Source of the DNA: an uncultured virus (IMG/VR IMGVR_UViG_3300028840_008158)
Taxonomy: Duplodnaviria; Heunggongvirae; Uroviricota; Caudoviricetes
Reading direction: 5' to 3' (one strand)
Virus record (IMG/VR): IMGVR_UViG_3300028840_008158
Length of the DNA stretch: 57,056 nucleotides
How positions within the stretch are numbered: the first letter of the stretch is position 1; each line of letters begins with the position of its first letter. This document shows, piece by piece, positions 1 through 28,789 of the stretch. A program made the translations under genes and the position numbers. The notes below the pieces were generated by a model. It was not told the origin of the DNA and made no database searches. It saw nothing but the letters and a program-made list of their open reading frames with translations.

Positions 1-191
1 AGCTTGGACCAGAAGCTCGTCGAGATGAGCAAGGAGAAGTTCGGGATTCGCGCGATCGGGTCCTCCGTCTCGGGGATGTCCCCGCTGGCGCGCAAGGACG
101 TCAAGGCCGCGCTACGGATGAGCAAGGAGGAGGAGGCCGAGTTCGAGGAGGGGATGGCGGCGGACTTGTTCGGCAACGACGAGGAGGAAAA

Positions 192-440
192 GTGGAAGCC
201 ATTGAGCATTTTGGCAAACCCCAGAGAGAATGCGAGGTCTGCAAGAAGCGGATAACGGAGTTCCGCATCCTGAGGATCAAGGTCTCGGCCAAGTCCGGCG
301 AGAAGCTCGCCGATCTGCGATACGAGGTTCCGCTCTGCGAGAAGCATCGCGGGGACGAATCGGCGGCCGTCAACGTCGGGGTTTCCTGGGAGAAGGAGCT
401 ATACAAGGATGACGGCAAGGAAGCTCTCGTGGCCAAGTAA
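192..440 (+). CDS. small hypothetical protein, possible Zn-binding (CxxC...CxxH)
   Basis: GAGGAGG RBS before GTG; CEVC and CEKH motifs; overlaps partial upstream ORF 4-255. Confidence 0.45.
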   Translation: MEAIEHFGKPQRECEVCKKRITEFRILRIKVSAKSGEKLADLRYEVPLCEKHRGDESAAVNVGVSWEKELYKDDGKEALVAK

Positions 441-701
441 GCCGGGCGCGAACTGGAAGGTGCTCCGGGGAAGGAGGGGGATTCATTTCCCCGACTTGTT
501 CAACGTTCTTGATCAACGGGTATACGAGGGCGTGAAGGGCCGGTTCGGGTTCTGGGGGATGGAGGTCGTTAATAAGATCGCCGACGAGATGCGCGCCTTC
601 GTAGTTACGGGGCCGTTCGGGTACGTTCTAGATCGTCGCGTCGTGTGGGATTTTGACGTGCGTTGGGGACGTTTTCCCCAAGGACCAAAGGAGAACGAAA
701 A

Positions 702-1580
702 ATGAGGCGACGTAAATTCCTGGCCGTGACAATGCTGGCCCTCCTGGCGGCTTGCAGCAAACCAACGACCCCGGATCCCGTCCTGACCCACGGAGATGAC
801 CGGGCTCTCCTGGTGGGGATCAACGAGTATCCAGGAGCGCCGCTGAGGGGATGCGTGAACGACGTCAACAACGTGAAGGAATACCTGATCAAGGAACAAG
901 CGTTCCCCGCCGACAGGATCATCGTCCTGACCGACAAGGACGCCACGCGAAACGCCATATGGAAGAAGCTGGAGTGGCTCGTCGCCGACGCCAAGGCCGG
1001 GGACCGCCGCTACTTCCATTTCTCTGGGCATGGTACGGAGTTCGCCGGTCGCGAGACCGAAACGCAGCCCGGGGGCATGAACCAGGTCATCTGTCCATAC
1101 GACTTCGACTGGACCGAGAAGACGATGGTCATGGACGTCGAGTTCAGGGACCTCTTCAAGAAGATGCCCGAGGGCGTCGTGTTCAACTGGGCCAGCGACT
1201 CGTGTCATTCCGGCGACCTGACTAGGGACCTCGGGCGCCCCGAGGCCAAGCCGAGGCGCTACCCCACGACTCCGGACGACGTCAAGGCCCGGATCAAGAA
1301 GGCGAAGGAGCTCGGGCTGAAGGGGAAGGGATTCATCGGCGGCCTCCTGGACGTGGGATACGTCTCCGGATGCAAGTACGACCAGACGTCGGCCGACGCC
1401 TACGAGGATGGCGAGTATTGCGGGGCGATGACCCATTTCCTCCTGAAGACGCTACGGGAGATGCCTGACAAGCCCCTCGTGGAGGTCGTCAAGGAGCTCA
1501 ACGTCAAGCTGGCCTACAAGTTCTATACCCAAAGGCCGCAATGCGAGGGGGCACGGTTCAACAAGCCCTTCCTGAAATGA
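702..1580 (+). CDS. metacaspase / caspase-family peptidase C14 with lipoprotein signal peptide
   Basis: RALLVGINEY, LRGCVND, catalytic HFSGHG and SDSCHSG; N-terminus MRRRKFLAVTMLALLAAC (lipobox). Confidence 0.9.
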   Translation: MRRRKFLAVTMLALLAACSKPTTPDPVLTHGDDRALLVGINEYPGAPLRGCVNDVNNVKEYLIKEQAFPADRIIVLTDKDATRNAIWKKLEWLVADAKAGDRRYFHFSGHGTEFAGRETETQPGGMNQVICPYDFDWTEKTMVMDVEFRDLFKKMPEGVVFNWASDSCHSGDLTRDLGRPEAKPRRYPTTPDDVKARIKKAKELGLKGKGFIGGLLDVGYVSGCKYDQTSADAYEDGEYCGAMTHFLLKTLREMPDKPLVEVVKELNVKLAYKFYTQRPQCEGARFNKPFLK

Positions 1581-1930
1581 CGGGGGCCGCATGGACAGGA
1601 AAGCATACGAGGACAAGATAAGGAAGGGATACGAGGAACTGCGCGGCTATCCCCCGACCAAGGAATCCATCGACTTGATAATGGGAATCTGCTGCGACTT
1701 GGCGAAGCTCAGGATGAGGTCTCTCGAGGCCCAAGCCAATGTCCGCCGATCATAACGTCTTGAGCCACCAGACGTAGAACGCCCACGGGACGAGCAGCAG
1801 GAGCGGGGACAACGCCCAGCCCCACGAGATCGCGAACCAAACCTTCAGGAGGACCAGGGCTCCGGTCCCGCCGATGGCGATGACGGGGGGAAGAACGAGG
1901 GCGAGCGCCATCAAAGGGAAAATCCACATC

Positions 1931-2587
1931 TCATTCTTCCTTTAGGATCAAGCCCAGGCTCTTCGCGTCCAGCTCGCCCTTCAGCTTCAGGTATTTCGTT
2001 ATGATGTTCGATCCCACGAGGAGCGCCTTGTCCTTTTCGAGGGGGAACATCGCGATGCCGAGCGCGATCACGCGGCCTTTCTCGTCGAGGACGGGCCCCC
2101 CGCTGCTCCCGTGATTGAAGTCCTCTATGCGGGCCGTCCATAGGGGACCAATGCGCTCCGTCATCTTCCCCTTCTTCATCGACATCTCCATCCCGACGAA
2201 GAAGTTGGGGTTGATGATCTTTTGCCCCTCCTTGGGCCCCTTCTCCTCGATATTCAGGACGAACGGCGGCTTGATCGCCGGCCTGAGGACGCATAGGTCG
2301 AACGTCCTGTCCAGCTTGACGATCTCGCAGCGTATCCATCCGACGGGGAAATCGACGAGGATTTCCTTTGGTTTCTCGCCGTTCTTGGCGAGGTTACCCG
2401 CGTAGAGGATGACGTGGGCCGCCGTGATGATGTAATCGTTGCCGTCGTGCCTGACCGGGAAGGATAGCCCGTGTTGCGAGCAAAGCGTTTGCTTGTCGGG
2501 CTGGAAGTTGGACTTGACGCGGAAGGCGAACGGTTCGCCGCCCAAGGCGGCCGCGCACAAGAGGAACAACAGGGTCGCGTATCGCAT
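1931..2587 (-). CDS. secreted trypsin-like serine protease
   Basis: signal peptide MRYATLLFLLCAAALG; TAAHV, DLCVL, HGSSGGPV triad motifs. Confidence 0.85.
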   Translation of the reverse strand: MRYATLLFLLCAAALGGEPFAFRVKSNFQPDKQTLCSQHGLSFPVRHDGNDYIITAAHVILYAGNLAKNGEKPKEILVDFPVGWIRCEIVKLDRTFDLCVLRPAIKPPFVLNIEEKGPKEGQKIINPNFFVGMEMSMKKGKMTERIGPLWTARIEDFNHGSSGGPVLDEKGRVIALGIAMFPLEKDKALLVGSNIITKYLKLKGELDAKSLGLILKEE

Positions 2588-2625
2588 TTCTTTGACCCCG
2601 CTGGTATATTCCCCCAGAACTTGCC

Positions 2626-3036
2626 TCAAACCTTCACGACCAGGAACGAAAACAGGAAGCGCCCGTCCTTCAATCTCATCCGGAAGGACTGCAAGCCCGG
2701 GTCCTTGAAGGAGGCTTCCTTACCGGAGGCGAGGAGGTCGACGCCGCGCTTGAAGAGCTCGTCGAGGCTGCCCGGCGGCGACGTGGGCTCGAGGAACATG
2801 GTGGTGGACTTGACTGATCCCGACATCGAGTACGAGTTCGACCATGCCCGGATGCGAAGGGTCGCCTTGTCCTCTATCTTGATCCTGATGGCGTCGCCCG
2901 TATCCAGGCGTTCCTCGGCCCAGGACAGGACGCCCTCGAGCCTACCGCGCAACGCCACCTCGGACGCCACGTCCTCGATGTCATCCCGGGACAGCGATCT
3001 CCATGACCCGCGCTTGCGCTCGCGGACGACGATCAT
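2626..3036 (-). CDS. hypothetical protein
   Basis: ORF with GGAGA RBS, protein-like composition. Confidence 0.5.
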   Translation of the reverse strand: MIVVRERKRGSWRSLSRDDIEDVASEVALRGRLEGVLSWAEERLDTGDAIRIKIEDKATLRIRAWSNSYSMSGSVKSTTMFLEPTSPPGSLDELFKRGVDLLASGKEASFKDPGLQSFRMRLKDGRFLFSFLVVKV

Positions 3037-3113
3037 TGGATCTCCCCCTGTCGTCATCTTACGTCCCTTGCGCGAGCCCTCCTGCATGGTATGATGAATA
3101 CGAGGAGGACGTC

Positions 3114-3284
3114 ATGGCCAACAAGGAGAAGACGGAGAAGGACGCCTGGAAGAAGGTTTCCGACAGCGCCGAGGAGATGGTCTCGTCCATCGAGAAGGGC
3201 GGCAGCGAGGCCTCGATCAAGAAGGCGACTGACAAGTTCCGGGGGGCGTCCTCGGACTACATGAAACTTGTCTCCAAAAAATAA
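3114..3284 (+). CDS. small hypothetical protein
   Basis: GAGGAGG RBS, TATGAT upstream, 56 aa. Confidence 0.55.
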   Translation: MANKEKTEKDAWKKVSDSAEEMVSSIEKGGSEASIKKATDKFRGASSDYMKLVSKK

Positions 3285-3295
3285 AGGAATTGGGC

Positions 3296-3324
3296 TTGCG
3301 GCGTCCAATCTATTGGTGTATTAT
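3296..3324 (+). promoter_or_regulatory. sigma70-like promoter of tRNA array 1
   Basis: TTGCGG-17 nt-TATTAT with A-rich UP-like tract upstream. Confidence 0.65.
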
Positions 3325-3383
3325 GATTCTAGCGAGGCCGGGACCCTGACTAGGGCCGGCCCTTGAGCCAAGGATCGAGGATC

Positions 3384-3440
3384 ATGTCAAGAAACGGTTG
3401 TCGGTTTAACGGTAGGATGAATCGAGGGCTGAGCCCTTGA
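3384..3440 (+). CDS. attenuator leader peptide 1 (MSRNGCRFNGRMNRGLSP)
   Basis: AAGGA/GAGGA RBS; codons AGA, CGG, AGG, CGA, GGT x2, GGG, TGT, TTT, ATG x2 match every anticodon type of array 1; stop codon lies in the antiterminator arm. Confidence 0.75.
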   Translation: MSRNGCRFNGRMNRGLSP

Positions 3441-3501
3441 GCGAAGTCGTTTTTCCCCGACGACGCTTGAGGGCGAGCCAGAGGCTCGCCCTTCTTGTTT
3501 T
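3433..3501 (+). terminator. attenuator 1: antiterminator (3433-3443 with 3464-3474) overlapping intrinsic terminator (3469-3493 plus U tract)
   Basis: GCCCTTGAGCG/CGCTTGAGGGC 11 bp incl. 2 G-U; GAGGGCGAGCC-AGA-GGCTCGCCCTT then CTTGTTTT. Confidence 0.8.
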
Positions 3502-3507
3502 CGGGGA

Positions 3508-3521
3508 GGATCTTTGACAAG
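3508..3521 (+). promoter_or_regulatory. boxA-like antitermination motif
   Basis: GGATCTTTGACAAG; TCTTTGACAAG repeated at 9970-9980 in the same position relative to terminator and first tRNA. Confidence 0.55.
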
Positions 3522-3539
3522 CGAATAAGCCGGACGCGC

Positions 3540-3616
3540 CCAGGGGTGGTGTAGGTCGGTCTGCACGCCTGCCTGAAGAGCAGGAGGTACTGGTTCGATT
3601 CCAGTTCCCTGGGCCA
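3540..3616 (+). tRNA. tRNA-Phe(GAA)
   Basis: cloverleaf, anticodon arm CCTGC-CTGAAGA-GCAGG, TTCGATT, CCA. Confidence 0.85.
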
Positions 3617-3620
3617 GTTC

Positions 3621-3696
3621 CCAGGGGTAGTGTAGTTGGATGGCACGCGACCCTGAAGACGTCGAGGCGGCGGTTCGAATCCGCCCCCCTGGACCA
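3621..3696 (+). tRNA. tRNA-Phe(GAA)
   Basis: CCAGGGG/CCCCTGG acceptor, loop CTGAAGA, TTCGAAT, ACCA. Confidence 0.85.
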
Positions 3697-3743
3697 TTTA
3701 ACTCAAACGAGGAACAAACGTTACGTTGTAGGATGAAAGTAAG

Positions 3744-3929
3744 ATGACGAAGTTGAAGAAGGACCTTGCCCTGAAGTTGTACAGGCTTAGGGAGAAGGAC
3801 GAGAGACTGTACGAGGAATGCATGACCGTCCTCCCGCGAGACGTTCGCGACGAGGTGACGGACGCCATGCAACTCATGGTCCTGCTGGACGAGCAGGAAC
3901 GGAGAGAAGAGATTGTCGCGGGCGGCTAG
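3744..3929 (+). CDS. small hypothetical protein inside tRNA array
   Basis: 61-aa ORF; stop codon lies inside the next tRNA gene. Confidence 0.5.
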   Translation: MTKLKKDLALKLYRLREKDERLYEECMTVLPRDVRDEVTDAMQLMVLLDEQERREEIVAGG

Positions 3930-3992
3930 GCGTGGTCGTCTGGCGGGGCTCATATCCCTGCAATCGGGGTTCGATTCCCTGGCCCGCTACCA
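3917..3992 (+). tRNA. tRNA-Met(CAT), initiator-like
   Basis: C1:U72 mismatch, three G-C pairs closing loop CTCATAT, ACCA. Confidence 0.75.
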
Positions 3993-4078
3993 AATCAAGT
4001 CCCCTCCGACCGCAAAGACCCGGTCATCCGGCCGCACCGGCCCTGATGGATTACCGGCGAGCTTCCGAGGGGCGAAAA

Positions 4079-4151
4079 AGCGACGACGGCGTAGAGTCGA
4101 CCTAGCTCTCATAAGGCTGGGGAGAGGGTGCGATCCCCTCCGTCGCTACCA
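4079..4151 (+). tRNA. tRNA-Met/Ile2(CAT), atypical
   Basis: AGCGACG/CGTCGCT acceptor, loop CTCATAA, T-loop TGCGATC, ACCA. Confidence 0.65.
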
Positions 4152-4155
4152 GATT

Positions 4156-4231
4156 CGCCGCGTAGCCAAGCGGGCAAGGCGACGGATTGCAACTCCGTTA
4201 CGCGCTGGTTCGAATCCAGCCGCGGCGTCCA
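4156..4231 (+). tRNA. tRNA-Cys(GCA)
   Basis: ACGGA-TTGCAAC-TCCGT, U73, CCA. Confidence 0.9.
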
Positions 4232-4238
4232 AGATCGA

Positions 4239-4315
4239 CGCAGGGTGGAGCAGCCTGGCAGCTCGCCAGCCTCATAAGCTGGAGGTCGGAGGTTCGAATC
4301 CTCTCCCTGCTACCA
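4239..4315 (+). tRNA. tRNA-Met(CAT), fMet-like acceptor
   Basis: CGCAGGGTGGAGCAGCCTGG start, CCAGC-CTCATAA-GCTGG, ACCA. Confidence 0.9.
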
Positions 4316-4318
4316 AAC

Positions 4319-4394
4319 GTGGGTGTGGTGTAGCGGCTCTGCACGCGACCTTGCCAAGGTCGAGGTACCGGTTCGACCCCGGTCATCCACTCCA
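4319..4394 (+). tRNA. tRNA-Gly(GCC)
   Basis: CGACC-TTGCCAA-GGTCG, TCCA end. Confidence 0.9.
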
Positions 4395-4395
4395 A

Positions 4396-4469
4396 GCTGG
4401 CGTAGCTCAATGGTAGAGCACTTGGTTCCCAACCAAGGTACGGGAGTTCGATTCTCCTCGTCAGCTCCA
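4396..4469 (+). tRNA. tRNA-Gly(CCC)
   Basis: CTTGG-TTCCCAA-CCAAG, TCCA end. Confidence 0.9.
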
Positions 4470-4480
4470 AAGGAGGCCAA

Positions 4481-4741
4481 ATGGCCCATTTCGTGTTCGT
4501 GATAGACGACAAATTCGTGTACAAGCGGCTGGCGCCGGACAAGCGAGAGGCCGAGAAGCACGCCGCGGAGAAATATCCAGGGGCGAAAGAAATCAAGTTC
4601 GTGGGCAAGAACAGCGACCCAAACGACCGTGGATGGACGATTTACGACAGGTGGACGAAGAAGATCGCGGCCAAGGAGGAGAAAGAGGCCAAGGATCAGG
4701 CGAAAAAAGAGGCGAAGGGTCCAGCAGAAGAGGTTCCATGA
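4481..4741 (+). CDS. hypothetical protein
   Basis: AAGGAGG RBS, 86 aa. Confidence 0.65.
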   Translation: MAHFVFVIDDKFVYKRLAPDKREAEKHAAEKYPGAKEIKFVGKNSDPNDRGWTIYDRWTKKIAAKEEKEAKDQAKKEAKGPAEEVP

Positions 4742-4780
4742 GGGCCACGGGATCTCCGCTCGTCTCATAGAACCTCCATA

Positions 4781-4855
4781 GGGGCAGATGGCAAACGGTG
4801 CGCCGAACGTCTGCAAAGCGTTTCTTAGCGGGTTCGACTCCCGCCTGCCCCTCCA
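4781..4855 (+). tRNA. tRNA-Cys(GCA)
   Basis: AACGT-CTGCAAA-GCGTT, GGGGCAG/CTGCCCC, TCCA. Confidence 0.85.
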
Positions 4856-4857
4856 GC

Positions 4858-4933
4858 TTCCCCGTGGTCCAAAGGACGAGGGCGCAGGCCTCCGGAGCCT
4901 GAGGTCCGGGTTCGATTCCCGGCGGGGATGCCA
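4858..4933 (+). tRNA. tRNA-Arg(CCG)
   Basis: CAGGC-CTCCGGA-GCCTG, TTCGATT, GCCA. Confidence 0.85.
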
Positions 4934-4948
4934 AACGAGGGGGTCGAC

Positions 4949-5185
4949 ATGAGCAACCGAATCCCGACCCGGATCGTCCCCCTGGATTGCGATTGCTGCG
5001 GCTCCCCCGTCCAGACGATGTCGAGCTGCCTTTTTTGCGAGGCGATCCTTTGCGTTGAATGCAAGATGGCTCACGACTGCGATGGCGGCACGAGTCGTCC
5101 CAGGGGCCTCAAGGCGGCGAGGAAGTCGTCGCGGCGAAGGAAGAAGCCCCGGAAGAAGCCGCGCAAGCCCCTTCGCAAGACCTAA
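4949..5185 (+). CDS. small Cys-rich Zn-finger protein with basic tail
   Basis: CDCC, CLFC, CVEC motifs; GAGGGG RBS. Confidence 0.5.
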   Translation: MSNRIPTRIVPLDCDCCGSPVQTMSSCLFCEAILCVECKMAHDCDGGTSRPRGLKAARKSSRRRKKPRKKPRKPLRKT

Positions 5186-5259
5186 GCCCCCGTAGTGTAA
5201 TGATAGCACGATCGTCTTCTAAGCGATCAGCCCAGGGTGAGTACCTGGCGGGGGTACCA
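5186..5259 (+). tRNA. tRNA-Arg(TCT)
   Basis: ATCGT-CTTCTAA-GCGAT; atypical T-loop GTGAGTA; ACCA. Confidence 0.8.
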
Positions 5260-5288
5260 ATTGACTTGAACGATGTTCTGGATACAAT

Positions 5289-5364
5289 GCCCTCGTAGTG
5301 TAGTGGAGCGCACGCGACGCTTCGAACGTCGAAGAGGCGGGTTCGATTCCTCCCGAGGGTGCCA
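5289..5364 (+). tRNA. tRNA-Arg(TCG)
   Basis: CGACG-CTTCGAA-CGTCG, GCCA. Confidence 0.85.
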
Positions 5365-5722
5365 AATGAGACAAATCTTGTTCGTAACGCCCGGGGGTCT
5401 CCGTCGCTCGTATTGCAACGCGGCCCCGTTTTCTTCCATCTGGGGGCGCAATGAGATGATCCGCGATGCGTGGCATAGAGACGCGCGTCGCCTGACGTTG
5501 ACGGCGGTGATCATTCATCATGCATGCCTCCCGGGCTTGGAAGACAGGCCGCTCTGATGAGACATCTCGTGAACGCGATCTACGATGGTTGCTGTGCCGA
5601 GGCGAGGCTCCATGTCCGTTCCGGCAGTCGGTTGAACATCATAGCGACGGTCATGGACGCCATGCGAAAGGTCGACTACGAATACACGTACGTGATGGAA
5701 GATTCGATGAAGAACAAAACGC

Positions 5723-5797
5723 GCCCCCGTAGTGTAGCGCATCGCACGGCTCCGTCCTAAGGAGCAAGGGAGGGTTGGACTCCTTCCGGGGGTACCA
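5723..5797 (+). tRNA. tRNA-Arg(CCT)
   Basis: GCTCC-GTCCTAA-GGAGC, T-loop TTGGACT, ACCA. Confidence 0.8.
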
Positions 5798-6037
5798 AAA
5801 GGAATCGGGAATGAGCTGCTTGTCGAGCTTCTTGTTGACGGACGAGGGACTTCCAGGATATCCCGCGCCCAGGTATGACATGCGCGTCGTATGGAATCCT
5901 CCTCATGCGCCCGTGATGGATAGCGGCGAGCTCATCTCCATGGGTTCGCGCCCGTGGTGGCGTCGCCATGCCATGATCGCGCCCTGGAACGGCGCGTTGA
6001 TCGAAGCCTACGAGTCGTGGGTATACGCCATGAAAGA

Positions 6038-6751
6038 TCAATCATAAAGCCCGATGGCGTGCTTGTACATGACCGAGAGCTTGTCCTCCAGGCCGCATTT
6101 GTTGCATCGCATCCTCTCGAGGTTGGCGGTCAGCTCCTCGGGCGTCGAGTCGATCGTACCGATCTTGTGGCAGAGCGGCGATTCGCCCGCGACGATGGTC
6201 CCGTCGACGTTGATGGACGGCGTACACATCTTGGCGCCCTGGCGCAAGAACTTGATCGCCTCCCTCACGTCCCCCGTGGAACGCGTCACGCTTCGCAGGT
6301 TGAAGCACGTCGGGGCTTGCTTGTCGCATTTGATCTCGTTGGCGACGGCCCTCCCCAGCGGAATGATCGTCCTTATGCGGTCCTCATACCGGAACAGGGG
6401 ATGATCGAACTTCTCGATCCTGGTCTTGTAGAAGCGCGGGTCGGCAGTGACCTGGACCCAAATCCCTAGCCTGATTACCTCCTCGCGCAGCGCGTCATCT
6501 TCCAGGAACATGCCGTTGCTGAGCATGACGACGCGGGACAGTCGTTCCGTGGCGACGGATAGGAACTCCAGCGCCCGGGGATGGTCCATGGGTTCGCCCC
6601 CGGAAACGAGCATGAAAGACAACGTGTTGGAATCAATGAAGTCGATGATCTTTCGGAACGTCTCCATGGTCATGTGCTCCCCGGAAGGGGACGCCTCGAC
6701 CATGCAATGAGGGCAGTTCATGCGGCATTTGTGGGTTATACGCACGAGCAT
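6038..6751 (-). CDS. radical SAM protein with C-terminal Cys cluster
   Basis: CRMNCPHC (CxxxCxxC), SGGEP, C-terminal CxxC. Confidence 0.85.
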   Translation of the reverse strand: MLVRITHKCRMNCPHCMVEASPSGEHMTMETFRKIIDFIDSNTLSFMLVSGGEPMDHPRALEFLSVATERLSRVVMLSNGMFLEDDALREEVIRLGIWVQVTADPRFYKTRIEKFDHPLFRYEDRIRTIIPLGRAVANEIKCDKQAPTCFNLRSVTRSTGDVREAIKFLRQGAKMCTPSINVDGTIVAGESPLCHKIGTIDSTPEELTANLERMRCNKCGLEDKLSVMYKHAIGLYD

Positions 6752-6803
6752 GCCTCGTCCTCCTGCCCGTGGGGACGGGCCTTCTTTTCACCTGACGTCC
6801 GGC

Positions 6804-6831
6804 TTGACATCGCTTGTCATGGGGGTAGGAT
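6804..6831 (+). promoter_or_regulatory. sigma70-like promoter
   Basis: TTGACA-16 nt-TAGGAT. Confidence 0.6.
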
Positions 6832-6851
6832 GACGTTGGAGGTGGAACGTC

Positions 6852-7025
6852 ATGAAGACCAGGAAAGAGGCGCGTTTCGGGACGCCGGAAGAGGTTCGTA
6901 ACCAGGTCGAGGAGTTGTACCAGAAGTACGGCTTTGGGAAAACGAACAAGAAGCCCAGGCTAAACGAGGACGAGCCCCCGGCGTGGGTCGTGGAAATCGC
7001 CGAGAAGGCGGCGAAAAAGGATTGA
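6852..7025 (+). CDS. 57-aa hypothetical protein (not in ORF track)
   Basis: GGAGGT RBS; MKTRKEARFGTPEEVRNQ...AEKAAKKD. Confidence 0.55.
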   Translation: MKTRKEARFGTPEEVRNQVEELYQKYGFGKTNKKPRLNEDEPPAWVVEIAEKAAKKD

Positions 7026-7030
7026 GTTGT

Positions 7031-7103
7031 GCGTCGATAGCTCAGCGGCAGAGCGTTCGGCTCTTTAACCGAATGGACGCAGGTTCGAGCCCTGCTCGGC
7101 GCA
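7031..7103 (+). tRNA. tRNA-like RNA, Lys-like, 8-nt anticodon loop (CTCTTTAA), no encoded CCA
   Basis: GCGTCGA/TCGGCGC acceptor, canonical D and T arms, TTCGG-CTCTTTAA-CCGAA. Confidence 0.7.
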
Positions 7104-7117
7104 TTGAAAATTGAGGT

Positions 7118-7193
7118 TGTTGGGTAGCTCAGCGGTAGAGCGTTCGGCTCATAATCCGAATGGACGCAGGTTCGAGCCCTGCCCCAACAACCA
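7118..7193 (+). tRNA. tRNA-like RNA, Met-like, 8-nt anticodon loop (CTCATAAT)
   Basis: TGTTGGG/CCCAACA acceptor, TTCGG-CTCATAAT-CCGAA, ACCA; arms almost identical to 7031-7103. Confidence 0.7.
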
Positions 7194-7215
7194 TCATATT
7201 ATCAAGGAGGGGATC

Positions 7216-8607: not shown

Positions 8608-8778
8608 GGCGATGGAGCGCTGCGTTTGCCGGTCCCGCGTCCCCCTCGGATTGATGTCCGTCGTTTCCGAGGACGCTGAGATCCGGGCCCAGCGGGCGTG
8701 GGAGAGGGGCGTCGGACGGACGCACGGGCGCGCTATTACCGACTTCATCATCAAGAGGATGGGACGAAGGGGGTTCCA

Positions 8779-9183
8779 ATGAGCCCGGAGAAGGACGCCG
8801 AGCTGGTCCGAAAATACCCCATGCTTTACGCCCAGCGGGAAGGCCGCATGTCCGAAACCTGCATGTGCTGGGGGTTCGAATGCGACGACGGCTGGTACTC
8901 GCTCATCGACGAGTTGTCCGCCAGGCTGGAGGGGCTCAACCGGGAGATCGCTTCCGGGGGCGGCCTCCCCATCGAGGCTTGCCAGGTGAAGGAGAAGTTC
9001 GGGACCCTTAGGTTCTACACGGACGCGGTACCAGGCGAGCATTCCGACCAGGTCGAGAAGTGGATCGAGGAGGCGGAGGAGAAGTCGGCGAGGACCTGCG
9101 AGCATTGCGGAAACCCCGGCAAGACGAGGGGCGGCGGGTGGATCATGACCTTGTGCGAGGATTGCGCCAAGGAACGAAGATGA
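8779..9183 (+). CDS. phage-type hypothetical protein (GW...QVKEKFGxLRFY...CExCG)
   Basis: motif pattern familiar from large phage genomes. Confidence 0.75.
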   Translation: MSPEKDAELVRKYPMLYAQREGRMSETCMCWGFECDDGWYSLIDELSARLEGLNREIASGGGLPIEACQVKEKFGTLRFYTDAVPGEHSDQVEKWIEEAEEKSARTCEHCGNPGKTRGGGWIMTLCEDCAKERR

Positions 9184-9725
9184 AAAGGCTCAACCTCAGA
9201 TGCGACGGGACGATCTTCCTCTCGGAGGACGCCGCGACGATCGTGGTGGGGAACGGCTACGCCTACGAGGGGAGGGCGCGGCCGACGTTCATGGACGAGT
9301 TCTACTTCTTCGGCCTGTCACACGTAGTCCCGATATCGTCGATCCCGAGGTGGCTCCTGGACGTTTGCAAATCCCCGGCCGGAAGGATGGGGACCGGGCT
9401 CGTGCCTTTCGTCGGGACGGCCGTCATGAGGGAGGAATCGGACCAGGTCGGCCTCTGGATCAACCGTGGCGAGACCATGGTCCTGAACCTGACCAAAGGC
9501 GTCCCGGTTTGGCGCAGGACGGCCGACGGGAACTTCATACCGTCCTGGGGCGCGACGTCCCTACAAGATTCGGATTCCCGAGGGAACCGAGCGCTGGACA
9601 GGATGAGGGAACTAGAGGGCGAAAGGCTCGATGTCTCCACGGTTCCGGGGTGGGCGGTGACCAAGACGAACGGCGATCCGGACCTGGTTTTGCCCAAGAA
9701 AAAATTTGGCAGGAAAATCTCTTGA
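9180..9725 (+). CDS. hypothetical protein
   Basis: ATGA coupling to upstream gene. Confidence 0.6.
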   Translation: MKRLNLRCDGTIFLSEDAATIVVGNGYAYEGRARPTFMDEFYFFGLSHVVPISSIPRWLLDVCKSPAGRMGTGLVPFVGTAVMREESDQVGLWINRGETMVLNLTKGVPVWRRTADGNFIPSWGATSLQDSDSRGNRALDRMRELEGERLDVSTVPGWAVTKTNGDPDLVLPKKKFGRKIS

Positions 9726-9750
9726 CGGCGGTCAAGATATAACGTAGGAT
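9722..9750 (+). promoter_or_regulatory. sigma70-like promoter of tRNA array 2
   Basis: TTGACG-17 nt-TAGGAT with A tracts upstream. Confidence 0.7.
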
Positions 9751-9789
9751 ACTCGTGAGGGCCAATGTTGGCCCCGGAGGAAACGGACG

Positions 9790-9885
9790 ATGTTCCGCTT
9801 AGGTTCAGGAAATGGATTGGCAGGACTCCTCGCGAGCGCGAGCGCGGATTCGCATGATTCCGCCCTGTCATATCGCGGCCCCTGA
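9790..9885 (+). CDS. attenuator leader peptide 2 (MFRLGSGNGLAGLLASASADSHDSALSYRGP)
   Basis: GGAGG RBS 9776-9780; 24 of 31 codons are Leu/Gly/Ser/Ala/Asp/His, the amino acids of array 2. Confidence 0.8.
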   Translation: MFRLGSGNGLAGLLASASADSHDSALSYRGP

Positions 9886-9946
9886 ACCGACCTAATTCTC
9901 AGGGAAGGTTCAGGGGCGAGCCCGAAAGGCTCGCCCCTTTCTTTTT
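9878..9946 (+). terminator. attenuator 2: antiterminator (9878-9888 with 9907-9917) overlapping intrinsic terminator (9912-9938 plus U tract)
   Basis: GCCCCTGAACC/GGTTCAGGGGC perfect 11 bp; AGGGGCGAGCC-CGAAA-GGCTCGCCCCT then TTCTTTTT. Confidence 0.85.
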
Positions 9947-9966
9947 GCCGGAAGACGGAAGACGTA

Positions 9967-9980
9967 GGTTCTTTGACAAG
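9967..9980 (+). promoter_or_regulatory. boxA-like antitermination motif
   Basis: GGTTCTTTGACAAG, second copy of the 3508-3521 motif. Confidence 0.55.
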
Positions 9981-9999
9981 AGAAGATGGCCGTCAATGT

Positions 10000-10074
10000 G
10001 GTGGCTATGGTGTAATGGTAGCCCGCTTGCCTGTGGCGCAAGAGGCCCGGGTCCGATTCCCGGTAGTCACCCCA
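10000..10074 (+). tRNA. tRNA-His(GTG)
   Basis: G-1/C73, CTTGC-CTGTGGC-GCAAG, CCA. Confidence 0.9.
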
Positions 10075-10084
10075 ATACATACGT

Positions 10085-10161
10085 GGCGTGGTGGCCCAAC
10101 TGGCAGAGGCGAACGGCTCAGAACCGTTTTGTTGGGGGTTCGACTCCCCCCCACGCTACCA
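10085..10161 (+). tRNA. tRNA-Leu(CAG), short variable loop
   Basis: AACGG-CTCAGAA-CCGTT, 5-nt variable region, ACCA. Confidence 0.85.
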
Positions 10162-10355
10162 TTACTGAGTTTCTACGAGGACATTTACGGAAAGAGCGGA
10201 AATGGACAAGGAGATTCCTACCCCGTAAGCACGACGGCAGCGTCCTAGTGGCGTCTGGGCAATGGGAGGCCAAGTAACCGGCGGCCGCGATAGCCACCGG
10301 CGAAAGCGCCAACTGCCAAGGGGATAAGCGCGGAACACGCCGCCGCCGCGCGGGA

Positions 10356-10426
10356 TGCCCGGTAGCTCAACGGCAGAGCAGCCCCCAGAGAGGGGGAAGA
10401 TGCGGGTTCGAATCCCGTCCGTGGTA
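10356..10426 (+). ncRNA. tRNA-like element with 5-nt loop (AGAGA) instead of an anticodon loop
   Basis: TAGCTCAACGGCAGAGC D arm, CCCCC-AGAGA-GGGGG, GCGGG-TTCGAAT-CCCGT; bulged acceptor, no CCA. Confidence 0.6.
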
Positions 10427-10427
10427 C

Positions 10428-10492
10428 TGGTTCTCGTCCAAAGTAGGACGCCGCCCGCAAGGCGGAAATCGGGGTGCAAGTCCTCGGAGCCA
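10428..10492 (+). ncRNA. tRNA-like element with 5-nt loop (CGCAA)
   Basis: TGGTTC/GAGCCA stem, GTCC/GGAC D arm, CCGCC-CGCAA-GGCGG, CGGGG-TGCAAGT-CCTCG. Confidence 0.55.
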
Positions 10493-10515
10493 ATTTCCTT
10501 TACCATTTCCACCAC

Positions 10516-10592
10516 GGTCTTGAGGTCGAAGCAGTCGAGACGCCTGCCTGTCACGCAGGAGAAAGCGGGTGCGAGTCCCGTCCTGACCGCCA
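10516..10592 (+). tRNA. tRNA-Asp(GTC)
   Basis: CCTGC-CTGTCAC-GCAGG, GCCA. Confidence 0.85.
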
Positions 10593-10606
10593 TTTGCAAC
10601 AGATTT

Positions 10607-10682
10607 GGCGCGGTAGCCCAACGGCAGAGGCACATGCTTCAAACCCATGTCAGTGAGGGTTCGAGTCCCTCCCGCGCTACCA
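10607..10682 (+). tRNA. tRNA-Leu(CAA), short variable loop
   Basis: loop TTCAAAC, GGCGCGG/CCGCGCT, ACCA. Confidence 0.85.
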
Positions 10683-10687
10683 ACTTC

Positions 10688-10761
10688 GCGGGTGTAAGTC
10701 AATGGCAGACTACCTGGCTTCCAACCAGGATACGGGAGTTCGATTCTCCCTACCCGCACCA
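10688..10761 (+). tRNA. tRNA-Gly(TCC)
   Basis: CCTGG-CTTCCAA-CCAGG, ACCA. Confidence 0.9.
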
Positions 10762-10770
10762 AGACGAGAC

Positions 10771-10858
10771 GGAAGGCGAACCGGACGAGAGCGCCGGGGC
10801 TGGTTTGAAGCCAGCGCGTGCCCTCGGGCATGGGGGGCAGGACCTCCGCCTTCCGCCA
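10771..10858 (+). tRNA. tRNA-Ser(TGA)
   Basis: GCTGG-TTTGAAG-CCAGC, long variable arm, atypical T arm, GCCA. Confidence 0.75.
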
Positions 10859-10859
10859 C

Positions 10860-10947
10860 GGAAGACGAACCGGACAAGCGAGCCGGGACTGGTTCGAAGC
10901 CAGCGCGTGCCCTCGGGCATGGGGTGCAAATCCTCCGTCTTCCGCCA
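10860..10947 (+). tRNA. tRNA-Ser(CGA)
   Basis: loop TTCGAAG, long variable arm, GCCA; paralog of the preceding gene. Confidence 0.8.
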
Positions 10948-11059
10948 TGAAACGCGGGGTATCGGGCTTGGCTCCGACTCGGTACCCGAAACGCATCCAG
11001 ATCGGGCCCCATGAATCGGCGAGCCGGGGGCCGAAAAAGCGTAACCGGTACTGGAAACT

Positions 11060-11147
11060 GCGTGGTCGTCTAACGAACGCGGGGTACCCCGCAGGACGCC
11101 GCCACGAAAGGCGGAAATGGAGGGTTGAAGTCCCTCCCCACGCTCCA
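11060..11147 (+). ncRNA. tRNA-like element with 6-nt loop (ACGAAA) and a hairpin inserted in the D loop
   Basis: GCGTGG/CCACGC then TCCA, CCGCC-ACGAAA-GGCGG, GAGGG-TTGAAGT-CCCTC, palindrome GCGGGGTACCCCGC in D loop. Confidence 0.55.
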
Positions 11148-11148
11148 A

Positions 11149-11240
11149 GGAAGGCCGCCGGAGTCCGGAGAGCCGGGCCGGTTTGCTAAACCGGGGGCGT
11201 CATAAGCGCTCAGCGGGTTCGAATCCCGCGCCTTCCGCCA
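11149..11240 (+). tRNA. tRNA-Ser(GCT)
   Basis: CCGGT-TTGCTAA-ACCGG, long variable arm, GCCA. Confidence 0.85.
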
Positions 11241-11249
11241 GAAATTCGG

Positions 11250-11309
11250 GGGGGCGTCGTATGGCTGGCAGCCATGAGGTCACGGGTTCGAGCCCCGTCG
11301 CCTCCACCA
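11250..11309 (+). tRNA. D-armless tRNA-Ala(GGC) (60 nt; functional or pseudogene)
   Basis: GGGGGCG/CGCCTCC with G3:U70, only TCG between acceptor and anticodon arm, loop CTGGCAG, intact T arm, ACCA. Confidence 0.65.
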
Positions 11310-11317
11310 CGAGATTT

Positions 11318-11392
11318 GGGGGCGCATGTACCGTAGGGGCGAAAATCCCTCGCACGGATTTTGGGTGGGTGCAACTCCCATCGCCTCCACCA
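11318..11392 (+). tRNA. tRNA-Ala(CGC)
   Basis: G3:U70, AATCC-CTCGCAC-GGATT, ACCA. Confidence 0.75.
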
Positions 11393-11573
11393 TTTTTTGC
11401 AATGCAAAGGGTTTATCTTCCATTCTTCGCAACCTATGCGATTTCCAACCTGGAATGCGCCTGTAATACGCATCACGCGAAAAGGCATTTGAAGTTGGTA
11501 GACGGAGAATGGGTATACGATCTCAAGAGCCTTACTCCAAGAGAAATGCTCGGAACCATTCCTGATTGAAGGC

Positions 11574-11648
11574 GGGGCCATCGTCCAATGGGAGGACGCA
11601 AGCTCGGCAGGCTTGAAATGGCGGGTTCGAATCCCCCTGGCTCCACCA
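11574..11648 (+). tRNA. tRNA-Ala(GGC)
   Basis: G3:U70, CAAGC-TCGGCAG-GCTTG (C33), ACCA. Confidence 0.8.
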
Positions 11649-11656
11649 AGTTTTAA

Positions 11657-11731
11657 GGGCCCGTAGTGTAGTGGCGATCATGCCTGATTGTCGATCAGGC
11701 GACGGGGGTTCGATTCCCCTCGGGCCCGCCA
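11657..11731 (+). tRNA. tRNA-Asp(GTC)
   Basis: CCTGA-TTGTCGA-TCAGG, GCCA. Confidence 0.85.
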
Positions 11732-11734
11732 TCC

Positions 11735-11770
11735 TGGACCGAGTTCGCCATTTGGACCGAGTTCGCCATT
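11735..11770. repeat. 18-bp tandem duplication TGGACCGAGTTCGCCATT x2
   Basis: exact direct repeat just after tRNA-Asp. Confidence 0.85.
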
Positions 11771-11988
11771 ATCCACTGGACCAGCGTCCATGAATCAGGT
11801 CGGGAACCTGGGAATACTCTTCGGCTGAACGAATGGAATATTTCGTTGACGAAGACCCGGTCCTTCTCGACCATCAGATGAGGCGGCACGTGTTTGGCGA
11901 CGAAGTACCGGCCCTTCTTATGGGGGCCGGACTCCAAGGGGCAGATAGTCGTCGCGAAGTGGATCGAGTATCGCATGCAGGATCATAC

Positions 11989-12076
11989 GGAAGGTGAACC
12001 GGACAAGCGCGCCGGGGCTGCTTGGAAGGCAGTTCGTGCCTTAGGGCATGAGGGGCGGCACCTCCTCCTTCCGCCA
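11989..12076 (+). tRNA. tRNA-Ser(GGA)
   Basis: GCTGC-TTGGAAG-GCAGT, long variable arm, atypical T arm, GCCA. Confidence 0.75.
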
Positions 12077-12217
12077 TTTTCTCGAAAGGACTCCACTGGG
12101 TTTCTGATGATTCATCCATGAAAAACATCAACATCAGCCTCCCATGGCCGTTGGTCGTAGTCGGGATCGTTCTCGACATTGCGATGATCATCACGATCAT
12201 AATATTGTTGTTGTAGA

Positions 12218-12300
12218 GCGCAGGTGGCGGAACTGGCAGACGCGCTAGGTCGAGAGCCTAGTGGGAGACCGTGGGGGTTCGAATCCCCCCCTGCGCACCA
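12218..12300 (+). tRNA. tRNA-Leu(GAG)
   Basis: CTAGG-TCGAGAG-CCTAG, extended variable arm, ACCA. Confidence 0.85.
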
Positions 12301-12303
12301 TTT

Positions 12304-12379
12304 GGGGACCCATGTTCCAAGGGGGCGACGACGCCTTGCAAGCATCGTGAGCCGGGTTCGATTCCCGGGGTCTCCACCA
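12304..12379 (+). tRNA. tRNA-Ala(TGC)
   Basis: G3:U70, loop CTTGCAA, TTCGATT, ACCA. Confidence 0.8.
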
Positions 12380-12398
12380 TGCCTTTAAGGAGATGATC

Positions 12399-12757
12399 AT
12401 GAAGCGAAAGGACGAAATCCCCAAGAAGGACTCGCTTGGGCACCGATGGATGCCGAGACGGGGAAGGCAGTCGATCCTGCCCAACATCTGCGTTGAATGC
12501 GGCGCGATTTCCGGGACGGACGACGCCTGCAAGAAATGCAAACCATGACCGACGAGTACTTTTGCCACGTATGCGGGTTCAGGAAGAAGGTCGGGGGTCG
12601 CGAGGACGACGGTCCCATCGTCGTCAAGTCGGTCCCGATGCAGCTCAAGGTGATCTACTCGTGTTCAAGGGTCAAGAACATTGCCGATACGGAGATCAGG
12701 CACGTCGTCAAGGAGCATGGGATTCCTCGTCGTCAGGGGAGCGGGGATGAGTCCTGA
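12399..12757 (+). CDS. two coupled small CxxC proteins (12399-12548 and 12545-12757)
   Basis: AAGGAG RBS, ATGA overlap, CVEC/CKKC and CHVC motifs. Confidence 0.45.
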
Positions 12758-12774
12758 GTATCAGCAGTATACAT

Positions 12775-12849
12775 GGCGCGGTGGCCCAACGGCAGAGGCG
12801 CGTGGCTTAGGCCCACGAGATGAGGGTTCGACTCCCTCCCGCGCTACCA
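12775..12849 (+). tRNA. tRNA-Leu(TAG), short variable loop
   Basis: CGTGG-CTTAGGC-CCACG, ACCA. Confidence 0.85.
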
Positions 12850-13067
12850 ATTCCGGTACCCTGGGACATGCAATGACGCGGCGACGGAGCGATGATGCAT
12901 GTTCGTCAGCACGATGGTCGGGGCGAGGTTGCCGAATCCCCCGATGATGTTCCTTCTGGGTGGTCCCGACAACATCCTGCCGTTGATGACCGAGATGACG
13001 TGATTCTCCAGGGGGATCACACCAGGAGGAGTCACGACTTTCTTGGCGAGGGAATAAACTAATTCGT

Positions 13068-13546
13068 TCATCGTCCTGCGATCCAATCCCATGCGCTAGC
13101 AACGCTATCGTCGCTTCTCGGTGACAGTAGCAATCTGAAAGTCCCGTCGGCTACGCGTTCGAAAGGGGCGTTGGTCCTGTCCATGTGTTCCCAGAGGATG
13201 TCCCCGTGATGTATCTCGCGTAGCCTTATCCATGGACTTCCCCATGGGACGTTCTCCATCGCGTTTCTGACGATCCTTTTTGTTTCGCCGGGATGTTCGT
13301 ATTCGACCGACACGTTGACGTGGTCTGGAATGAGCTTGTTGAGGACATCGGCAATGGGTCTCATTTCCCTTTTTCCTTTTTGGGGTTCATGAACCGGTCC
13401 ATGGACTTGATGATGTCCTCGGCCTTCATGGGGGGCTCGCACGTCCGACACCAATATCGAGGCCCGAACCCCATGTTCATCCCGAGGCCGGCCTCGTTCG
13501 GGTTGATCTCCTTGTCGCATTTGAAGCATCTTACTTTTTCGCCCAT
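13068..13546 (-). CDS. two small antisense hypothetical ORFs (13361-13546 with CxxC motifs; 13068-13364)
   Basis: AGGAAG and AGGGA RBS-like motifs, ATGA coupling. Confidence 0.5.
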
Positions 13547-13561
13547 CTGTCTTCCTTTCGT

Positions 13562-13638
13562 GGCGCGGTAGGCCAATCGGGAGAGCTAGGACACTTAAAA
13601 TGTCCGGGTTGAGGGTTCGACTCCCTCCCGCGCTACCA
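13562..13638 (+). tRNA. tRNA-Leu(TAA), short variable loop
   Basis: GGACA-CTTAAAA-TGTCC, ACCA. Confidence 0.85.
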
Positions 13639-13832
13639 ATTCTCGAATGCGATCCGCGTGTATCTCGACGAGGGATTCATGAGGCACGTCGTCGAGCAAC
13701 CAATTTCGAATGAAATGACCGTTCCTGTTGTATATCTGCAAACGTACGAAAATTTTGGGGCATATAACGACTTCTTCGGCGATGGATTTGCGTTCCCCCG
13801 AGCCCATGTTATACTTCGTGTAGGAGGGCGCC

Positions 13833-14219: not shown

Positions 14220-14460
14220 GTCGTCGATACCTGTACGCGAGGCGCCCGCGCCTGTCCCATTACGGGGGGCCTCTCCACGTCGAGTTCAAGTGGAGATCGG
14301 CTTGGCCGGGCCACGCGGATAGGGGACGTGATCACGTCGTCCTCAAGACGCCCGTCGAGATGGACGCGTTCCGCGAAATAGCGAATGCGTTCGTGACGTG
14401 GCCTAAGGTCGATTCGTGGTCCTCCATGTACGACAGCGTTAGGCTGCGTTGCGGGGGGGA

Positions 14461-15212: not shown

Positions 15213-15269
15213 CGAGCATGCGAGCCTTCCAAGCTCGAGGGGAGGGTGCAAGTCCCTCTACCCACACCA
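15194..15269 (+). tRNA. tRNA-Gly(TCC)
   Basis: CGAGC-CTTCCAA-GCTCG, ACCA; overlaps end of phosphatase ORF. Confidence 0.8.
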
Positions 15270-15612: not shown

Positions 15613-15642
15613 AAATTGGTCCTCAAGAAATTGGTCCTCAAG
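15613..15642. repeat. 15-bp tandem duplication AAATTGGTCCTCAAG x2
   Basis: exact direct repeat. Confidence 0.8.
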
Positions 15643-28787: not shown

Positions 28788-28789
28788 GC

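Follow-up and report, generated by a model that had tools for sequence, protein, structure and literature searches.

Two leaders ahead of two tRNA arrays

A stretch of DNA from an uncultured virus of the Caudoviricetes (IMG/VR record IMGVR_UViG_3300028840_008158) carries two arrays of transfer RNA (tRNA) genes on its + strand, between 3540 and ~15300, and each array is headed by a short leader whose open reading frame (ORF) contains a codon for every anticodon type encoded downstream. The stretch, 57,056 nucleotides (nt) of one strand read 5' to 3', is referred to as the window. Judged from sequence, we consider it reasonably probable that leaders 1 and 2 are ribosome-mediated attenuators, each sensing the supply of the tRNAs encoded by its own array. 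The anatomy of the leaders, the match between codons and anticodons together with its specificity, their conservation and the covariation of the antiterminator were established directly. An initial annotation, made for leader 1 from the letters alone, had proposed a codon-mirroring leader ORF, a terminator and an overlapping antiterminator, and this core reading held in all computational tests that were run.

Anatomy and codon content of leader 1

Leader 1 (3296-3521, + strand) lies ahead of array 1 and is built as follows.

3296..3324, + strand: promoter-like site, read by eye; -35 TTGCGG at 3296-3301, 17-nt spacer, -10 TATTAT at 3319-3324
3336..3361, + strand: 5' hairpin, GGCCGG..CCCT-GACT-AGGG..CCGGCC
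3370..3381, + strand: two Shine-Dalgarno (SD)-like sites, AAGGA at 3370-3374 and GAGGA at 3377-3381
3384..3440, + strand: leader-1 ORF MSRNGCRFNGRMNRGLSP, 18 codons and TGA
3422..3429, + strand: region 1, TCGAGGGC, pairing with 3433-3440 in the window only
3433..3443, + strand: region 2, the antiterminator 5' arm, with the stop codon (3438-3440) inside it
3464..3474, + strand: region 3, the antiterminator 3' arm, with 6 nt common to the terminator 5' arm
3469..3502, + strand: intrinsic terminator; stem 3469-3493 of 11 pairs (8 G-C), then a T-rich tail
3511..3521, + strand: first copy of a conserved box, TCTTTGACAAG, 18 nt 5' of the first array-1 tRNA
3540..5797, + strand: array 1, 13 tRNA genes of 9 anticodon types, with small + strand ORFs in between

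The promoter-like site scored under the threshold of the promoter scan, and a transcript from it would start near 3331. The ORF, with ATG at 3384, 17 further sense codons and TGA at 3438-3440, reads letter for letter as first annotated. Both the annotated pairing of regions 2 and 3 (2:3; 3433-3443 with 3464-3474), which comprises 11 pairs of which 2 are G-U, and the terminator at 3469-3493 are present. Together with its leader-2 counterpart (9912-9938), this terminator stem is one of the two top-scoring + strand sites within 1-16500, and the terminator scan returned no + strand terminator-like site within array 1 or 10001-15300.

Array 1 encodes tRNAs with the anticodons GAA (Phe, two genes), CAT (three genes), GCA (Cys, two genes), GCC and CCC (Gly), and CCG, TCT, TCG and CCT (Arg). 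At default settings ARAGORN reported 10 tRNA genes in 3540-5800; Rfam contributed 3540-3613 and 5186-5256, and relaxed ARAGORN 4071-4151. Three anticodon loops were read by eye: CTGAAGA in 3540-3616 (GAA, Phe), CTTCTAA in 5186-5259 (TCT, Arg) and CTCATAA in 4079-4154 (CAT). Matching allowed G34 to read C/U, U34 to read A/G and C34 to read G. All 9 anticodon types of the 13 genes are represented in leader 1, and 10 of its 17 codons are matched. AGA, AGG, CGA and CGG are rare codons of Escherichia coli; leader 1 carries AGA, CGG, AGG and CGA exactly once each, in parallel with the four Arg tRNAs of array 1 (TCT, CCG, CCT and TCG), and CGT and CGC are missing from the leader just as an Arg(ACG) gene is missing from the array. 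For the nine anticodon types and for the Arg codons and tRNAs our counts agreed with the initial annotation.

The match was compared with chance in two ways. With 200,000 random strings generated from the codon usage of the window (12,000 codons), we obtained P = 4.2e-4 for at least 10 of 17 matches and P = 2.2e-4 for coverage of all nine types. Since genuine off-frame DNA has a composition that random strings do not reproduce, native windows in all six frames were used as a second null: among 80,969 stop-free windows of 17 codons, 125 had 10 matches, 6 had full coverage and none had both. Leader 1 was also the shortest of 520 small ORFs to reach full coverage (the next has 41 codons), and an automatic codon-match scan ranked the two leaders first in the window. 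The codon match of leader 1 is thus confirmed as real and non-random.

Leader 2 repeats the arrangement ahead of array 2

The same anatomy, from promoter-like site through box to first tRNA and in the same order, occurs a second time in the window. Leader 2 (9722-9980, + strand) precedes array 2.

9722..9750, + strand: promoter-like site from the promoter scan; TTGACG, 17 nt, TAGGAT
9759..9774, + strand: 5' hairpin
9790..9885, + strand: leader-2 ORF MFRLGSGNGLAGLLASASADSHDSALSYRGP, 31 codons and TGA, with GGAGGA 8 nt upstream
9802..9809, + strand: region 1, GGTTCAGG, identical in letters to region 3; duplex with region 2 of -15.1 kcal/mol
9878..9888, + strand: region 2, spanning the stop codon (9883-9885)
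9907..9917, + strand: region 3, with 11 Watson-Crick pairs to region 2 and 6 nt common to the terminator
9912..9947, + strand: intrinsic terminator; stem 9912-9938 of 11 pairs (9 G-C), then a T-run
9970..9980, + strand: second copy of the conserved box TCTTTGACAAG, 20 nt 5' of tRNA-His
10001..13638, + strand: array 2, part 1; His GTG, Leu CAG, Leu CAA, Gly TCC, Ser TGA, Ser CGA, Ser GCT
10001..13638, + strand: array 2, part 2; Ala GGC, Asp GTC, Ser GGA, Leu GAG, Ala TGC, Leu TAG, Leu TAA
15194-15269: a further Gly TCC tRNA, beyond array 2

The ORF stops within CCCCTGAACC, whose complement GGTTCAGGGG follows downstream and overlaps the terminator; the box and tRNA-His come next. Array 2 also contains several aberrant tRNA-like elements. 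Three of its Ser tRNAs (10770-10858, 10859-10947 and 11988-12076; anticodons TGA, CGA and GGA) are paralogues of ~90 nt that were missed by ARAGORN at default settings and at the Rfam gathering score and were read by eye from the repeat family; homologues occur in three related contigs (L005, L006 and L008), and those of L006 align.

Against array 2, leader 2 matched in 22 of 30 codons and covered 14 of 14 anticodon types (P = 2e-5 and 6.2e-4 with random strings). None of 64,750 native 30-codon windows reached both values, and leader 2 ranked first among the 520 small ORFs on both measures. Exchanging the arrays abolished the match: leader 1 scored 4/17 against array 2 (P = 0.89) and leader 2 scored 3/30 against array 1 (P = 0.95).

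Conservation in related contigs

A metagenome scan with the alignment of a neighbouring protein of 463 amino acids (aa) picked up, besides the contig of the window itself, five contigs with ~60% identity in that protein. The contig L006 (13,992 base pairs, bp) is syntenic with the window and has both leaders; two closer relatives, P0002 (on a 64,897-bp contig) and P0003, are known from proteins only. The 'phages' collection held no close relative of the window, and IMG/VR returned no relative when queried with DnaE, with a 452-aa neighbouring protein or with the alignment of the latter. DNA-pattern searches gave nothing or only unrelated loci without tRNAs in IMG/VR, and nothing or a chance match in a Streptomyces gene among genome contigs.

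The leaders of L006 are designated 1' and 2'. Leader 1' (L006 228-296) is a 22-codon ORF homologous to leader 1, in which AGA, AGG, CGG and CGA again occur once each, at partly other positions, alongside CGC, three Cys codons, two Phe codons, GGT, GGC, GGG and an internal ATG. The two peptides are loosely alignable, with a common core of CGG TTT A-C GGT AG-, ATG and CGA GGG, and a 9-nt insertion in leader 1' preserves the frame. Leader 2' (L006 8376-8480) is a 34-codon ORF with in-frame insertions of 6 and 3 nt; it contains TTA, CTA, TTG, CTC and CTG once each, and Leu tRNAs with the anticodons TAA, TAG, CAA, GAG and CAG are found alongside. Each again matched its own array, leader 1' in 13 of 21 codons and 10 of 10 types (P = 4e-5) and leader 2' in 19 of 33 codons and 12 of 12 types (P = 4.9e-4), and the cross-controls were again null (3/21 and 5/33); because the leaders are homologous, these statistics are not independent of those of the window. 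What this sequence comparison shows is that sets of codons are maintained while the positions of the codons turn over between genomes. Within leader 2, 17 of 22 matched codons are identical in L006, compared with 2 of 8 unmatched codons (Fisher P = 0.028), and both of the identical unmatched codons fall in regions 1 and 2.

The initial annotation had noted that the three Asn codons of leader 1 find no partner in array 1 and had suggested a lost gene. Neither ARAGORN at any threshold nor Rfam detected a missed tRNA-Asn in 3540-6040, and array 1 of L006 has none either. The leader in L006 has one Asn codon, and the three positions are not conserved. Because of this turnover, and because array 1 of neither genome has a tRNA-Asn, the Asn codons look like variable filler and not like the trace of a lost gene.

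The signals around the ORFs were kept as well. Start codon, SD-like site, frame and stop position are retained in 5/5 contigs with leader 2 and 2/2 with leader 1, and all insertions and deletions inside the leader ORFs are multiples of three. For leader 1, L006 keeps CGAGGA(A)TC immediately 5' of the ATG, the promoter layout (L006 141-169; TTGCGT, 17 nt, TAGGAT), 9 of the 10 pairs of the 5' hairpin (one of them through a two-sided change) and a counterpart of the terminator (L006 325-349). At the position of the leader-2 5' hairpin, it has a hairpin of other sequence. Leader 2' is carried by three more contigs (L007, L008 and L009), in which the sequences just 5' of the ATG differ and the same ORF follows. 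Just 5' of the leader-2 start codon there is a hot spot (L008 1530-1590, L009 ~1530-1560): in L008 the beginning of the ORF, region 1 included, is duplicated over 31 nt, and L009 has a different, stronger SD site and a different second codon, with the remaining ORF unaltered.

The box was conserved too. The 11-mer TCTTTGACAAG has exactly two copies in the window, each 3' of a leader terminator, and a box TCTTTGACAA(G/C) lies 18-20 nt 5' of the first tRNA in the relatives (L006 377-387 and 8550-8559; L008 ~1776-1786). Two functions considered for TCTTTGACAAG were rejected. As a sigma-70 promoter of the array, its geometry would put the -10 element inside the tRNA; pairing with the start of the leader-1 ORF amounted to 7 bp in the window and was absent in L006.

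Predicted mutually exclusive helices and ribosome position

The 2:3 helix is the most stable element of each leader (-25.0 kcal/mol in leader 1 and -26.9 kcal/mol in leader 2), the terminators have -21.1 and -23.8 kcal/mol, and the helices between regions 1 and 2 (1:2) are the weakest (-11.3 and -15.1 kcal/mol). The leaders as a whole fold more stably than shuffled sequences (z = -3.15 and -4.14). In all four leaders (1, 2, 1' and 2') the stop codon lies inside the antiterminator 5' arm.

All 11 pairs of the leader-1 antiterminator are kept in both genomes, with four two-sided changes, three one-sided changes and none broken, so the annotated 2:3 helix carries compensatory changes. Over the whole leader-1 structure 97.6% of cells pair, a figure that drops to 26-60% if the 3' partner is displaced by 1-3 columns, and the same displacement lowers the number of double changes from 5 to 0-1; the observed covariation was reached in 17 of 500 column shuffles. 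Coming from two sequences, this covariation is modest but clean evidence for the predicted helix. The leader-1 terminator is nearly invariant between the genomes, and regions 1, 2 and 3 of leader 2 are invariant and hence uninformative on covariation. The 1:2 hairpin of leader 1 (TCGAGGGC/GCCCTTGA, 3422-3440), also part of the initial annotation, exists in the window but is not kept in L006, which has a different hairpin lying wholly upstream of region 2.

The effect of ribosome position was predicted from equilibrium folds of each leader, ending with the terminator stem, in which the -15 to +12 nt around the A-site codon were left unpaired and the mask was stepped codon by codon. Leaders 2 and 2' without a ribosome default to the terminator (0.94-0.95) because region 1 holds region 2. 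The antiterminator is predicted (0.92-0.99) when the ribosome stalls at any of codons 3-12 or at certain later codons, and the terminator returns (0.95-0.96) once it occupies the stop codon or one of the five codons before it. Leader 1' defaults to the antiterminator (0.82) and changes to the terminator (0.96) only when the ribosome is at the end of the ORF.

Proposed mechanism

In the attenuator model a transcript would begin at the promoter and present a short ORF with a Shine-Dalgarno site first. With the stop codon placed in region 2, the putative antiterminator 5' arm, and with region 3, its predicted partner, sharing 6 nt with the terminator 5' arm, a fast ribosome that reaches the stop codon while polymerase makes regions 3 and 4 would cover region 2; the terminator would then form and the tRNA genes would stay off. 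A scarce tRNA would slow decoding and leave region 2 free to pair with region 3, so that no terminator forms and polymerase enters the array. At the early codons of leader 1, any delay could keep the ribosome off region 2 until polymerase has passed. As no anticodon type of an array lacks a codon in its leader, the array would respond to any of its limiting tRNAs, being turned on by whichever is limiting and off again by the tRNAs supplied, in a negative feedback. Within this scheme we infer the transcript start, translation of the leader ORF, termination and the response to tRNA supply. We put at about even the chances of the more specific proposal that each array is a self-regulating 'tRNA-stat', in which the leader peptide is a codon catalogue of the array that tells synonymous codons apart.

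Five of the six features that define an attenuator appear to be present in silico: a short ORF with a ribosome-binding site behind a promoter-like site and ahead of the tRNAs; an intrinsic terminator between this ORF and the tRNA genes; a mutually exclusive antiterminator, of 11 bp in both leaders; a switch that follows ribosome position in equilibrium folds, as expected in leaders 2, 2' and 1' and at only 4 codons in leader 1; and enrichment of the leader in codons related to the regulated product. The sixth is dependence on translation and tRNA supply.

Several observations weigh against the attenuator model. Among leader codons, 7 of 17 in leader 1 and 8 of 30 in leader 2 have no matching tRNA in their arrays. 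Two array-1 tRNAs and the three Ser tRNAs rest on reading by eye, and with ARAGORN-default tRNAs and crude automatic arrays the match weakens to a binomial P of 0.0093 for leader 1 and 0.0013 for leader 2. Where the two genomes differ in tRNA content, the leaders do not follow: array 1 of L006 has a Gly-TCC gene, yet leader 1' has no GGA; leader 2' has four AGC/AGT and two GGA codons, and neither a Ser-GCT nor a Gly-TCC gene was found in the 14-kb contig; and leader 1' contains CGC without an Arg-ACG gene. The comparison covers only two lineages, which are homologous and not independent. The leaders show low codon adaptation (0.37-0.50, versus 0.57-0.87 for genes), which also fits an untranslated frame. 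Leader 1 without a ribosome is split (terminator 0.83, antiterminator 0.32), its 1:2 hairpin is not conserved in L006, and antitermination is predicted only for stalls at GGT, AGG, ATG and AAT (3411-3420); the early codons AGA, GGT, TGT, CGG and TTT give none, so that only a kinetic race model would accommodate the early sensed codons of leader 1. A second promoter could include the conserved box, which contains a perfect TTGACA, and distal tRNAs could be transcribed separately from promoter-like sites at 5261-5288 and 12173-12200. Two minus-strand genes sit between Leu-TAG and Leu-TAA, and because of these array 2 is possibly not one transcription unit.

Alternative explanations

The leaders might instead attenuate in response to general translation capacity (free ribosomes, elongation rate or amino-acid starvation), with the codon match being secondary. 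This explanation, which we consider unlikely, shares its anatomy with the attenuator model proposed here. It would also account for leaders that ignore the Gly-TCC and Ser-GCT differences between genomes, and the no-ribosome state of leader 1 leans to antitermination (0.82 in leader 1', split in the window), so that any loss of translation would open the array. It does not predict that, in both genomes, a leader fits the array behind it and fails against the other array, that the set of four rare Arg codons and the set of five Leu codon types persist although individual codons have moved, or that codons with a matching tRNA are better conserved than those without one.

A second possibility is that promoter, ORF and terminator form an independent small gene, for a peptide or a small RNA, and that the arrays use another promoter, maybe TCTTTGACAAG. 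The strong terminators, the TTGACA box between terminator and tRNA in 4/4 leaders and the other promoter-like sites within the arrays would agree with this. However, a -10 element spaced 16-18 nt from the TTGACA would hit the first bases of the tRNA, where no TA-rich hexamer is found, and conservation is seen in the codon classes but is poor in the peptide sequences. With the covarying, stop-containing helix over the terminator and the array-specific codon match also left unexplained, we judge an independent small gene to be distinctly improbable.

We find it very improbable that the leaders are structured, untranslated 5' regions with a role in processing or stability, in which open frames and codon content are accidental. 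Such regions would be expected to fold better than shuffled sequences (z = -3.15 and -4.14), the low codon adaptation would fit a non-coding frame, and open frames are common in G+C-rich DNA. Against this stand the start codon, SD-like site, frame and stop place kept in five leader-2 and two leader-1 contigs, ORF insertions and deletions that are all multiples of three, and a joint codon match seen in 0/80,969 and 0/64,750 native windows. Direct, T-box-like binding of tRNAs by the leader RNA, with the codon-like triplets as specifiers, would use the triplets complementary to array anticodons and the terminator/antiterminator pair, but it is barely plausible, since the Rfam T-box and all other models gave no match at E up to 10, the triplets lie in one frame between SD site plus start and stop, and neither a Stem I nor a T-box sequence was seen.

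Other tRNA loci and setting of the window

No third leader was found in the window; ahead of the tRNA pair at 7030-7193 are a promoter and an ordinary gene of 57 aa, with no terminator. The two members of this pair (7030-7104 and 7118-7193) scored 57-65 bits in Rfam and have 8-nt anticodon loops, for which ARAGORN reported the four-letter anticodons cttt and cata. Tandem tRNAs with four-letter anticodons (cata, ctta and cttt) also occur at L006 6101-6341. These 8-nt-loop tRNAs sit between the two arrays, behind a promoter-like site of their own, and have no leader.

Scattered in the arrays are degenerate tRNA-like elements and bare tRNA 3' halves with T arm and CCA (window 10357-10429, 10426-10495 and 11077-11148; L006 1123-1147 and 4318-4342), which suggests turnover of tRNA genes by duplication and decay. 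Three further elements (window 11250-11309 and 11318-11392, L006 9995-10069) combine an alanine-type acceptor stem (G3:U70, A73 and encoded CCA) with aberrant bodies, one of them without a D arm. Identity between window and L006 is 96% for the element at 11318-11392, compared with 72-95% for ordinary array tRNAs.

Automatic scans for codon-matched small ORFs in phage T5 and in Streptomyces phage Wakanda (60 ORFs each) gave best P values of 0.037 and 0.004, both at the level expected from multiple testing. In T5 (NC_005859 35617-35892, minus strand; our locus L015), gene T5.072 holds KSWEGWEGEIEWLYFY just upstream of tRNA-Tyr, Glu, Trp and Phe. Among 18,185 stop-free 16-codon windows of the 22-kb T5 tRNA region, only four, all overlapping KSWEGWEGEIEWLYFY, reach 10 matches and four types, and a hairpin overlaps the annotated promoter P14a between T5.072 and the tRNAs.

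The window has a G+C content of 60% and encodes DnaE, a clamp-loader subunit, RecA, primase, UvrD, ribonucleotide reductase and a C5 methylase. The contig that carries it is at least 440,765 bp long (L004), and its protein is listed on a contig of 546,851 bp. A PHROGs comparison of 23 window ORFs gave no clear structural or virion gene. We consider the source to be a giant phage-like element, and likely a phage. A PrkA - DUF444 - SpoVR gene set lies at 24571-31409 in this phage-like element, interrupted by a C5 DNA methylase, and two proteins with caspase-like domains are encoded at 663-1580 and 16834-17784. Two DNA sequencing runs contain the stretch, with leaders identical in both, and the other matching pieces came from tRNA genes of different organisms; none of the sequencing runs listed with it is an RNA run.

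Comparison with known systems

Genes for tRNAs are the commonest translation genes of phages, and to our knowledge hardly anything is known about the control of their expression. If the attenuator model is correct, tRNA supply would be under direct feedback from decoding speed, a logic known for amino-acid synthesis operons, and the grouping of tRNA genes into arrays would be explained by each group having one common sensor. Shortage of a single tRNA, whether from a mismatch with host codon usage or from anti-phage nucleases that cut tRNAs, would switch on the array concerned, which would connect phage tRNAs to host tRNA depletion. The leaders would then be natural, compact and multiplexed sensors of individual isoacceptor tRNAs.

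Amino-acid operons of enterobacteria are controlled by the attenuators trpL, hisL, leuL, thrL and pheL. The leaders described here resemble them in having a promoter-proximal short ORF rich in regulatory codons, a terminator with an exclusive antiterminator, and a stop codon placed so that a finishing ribosome would block the antiterminator; leader 2, in which region 1 duplicates region 3, follows the classical scheme of 1:2, 2:3 and 3:4 pairings. They differ in that the targets are tRNA genes and not biosynthetic enzymes, that the signal would be the amount of tRNA and not the supply of amino acid, and that a single codon is not repeated: there is roughly one codon per anticodon type of the array, with synonymous codons for separate isoacceptors. 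Multivalent attenuators, such as the ilvGMEDA and ilvBN leaders with Leu, Val and Ile codons and the thr leader with Thr and Ile codons, likewise integrate several codon classes in one leader. Those respond to two or three amino acids with codons in runs, whereas leader 1 covers 5 amino acids and 9 anticodon types and leader 2 covers 6 amino acids and 14 types, mostly by single codons and with synonymous ones distinguished.

In the pheST attenuator, the pheM leader places Phe codons before phenylalanyl-tRNA synthetase. It too is leader-peptide attenuation acting on the translation apparatus, with feedback on the supply of charged tRNA; there the target is a synthetase for one amino acid, whereas here the tRNA genes themselves would be regulated. 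T-box riboswitches share terminator/antiterminator control that reads the state of a particular tRNA, but they bind the uncharged tRNA through one specifier codon and without translation, whereas the leaders described here have an SD site, a start codon and an in-frame stop. The Rfam families for His, Leu, Thr, Trp and Phe leaders and for the T-box did not match the leaders at gathering score or at E up to 10, and the terminator hairpin alone gave sub-threshold Rfam matches (BjrC68 scored 23.8 bits, with the cut-off at 39). A search of full-text literature, whose coverage excludes older subscription work such as that on the phage T5 tRNA region, gave no account of such control for tRNA genes, and passages in two papers (PMC10732093 and PMC4810235) had no bearing on it. 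What appears to be novel is therefore the target, namely tRNA genes, and the use of a leader as a catalogue of array anticodons, while the predicted mechanism matches that of known leader-peptide attenuators.

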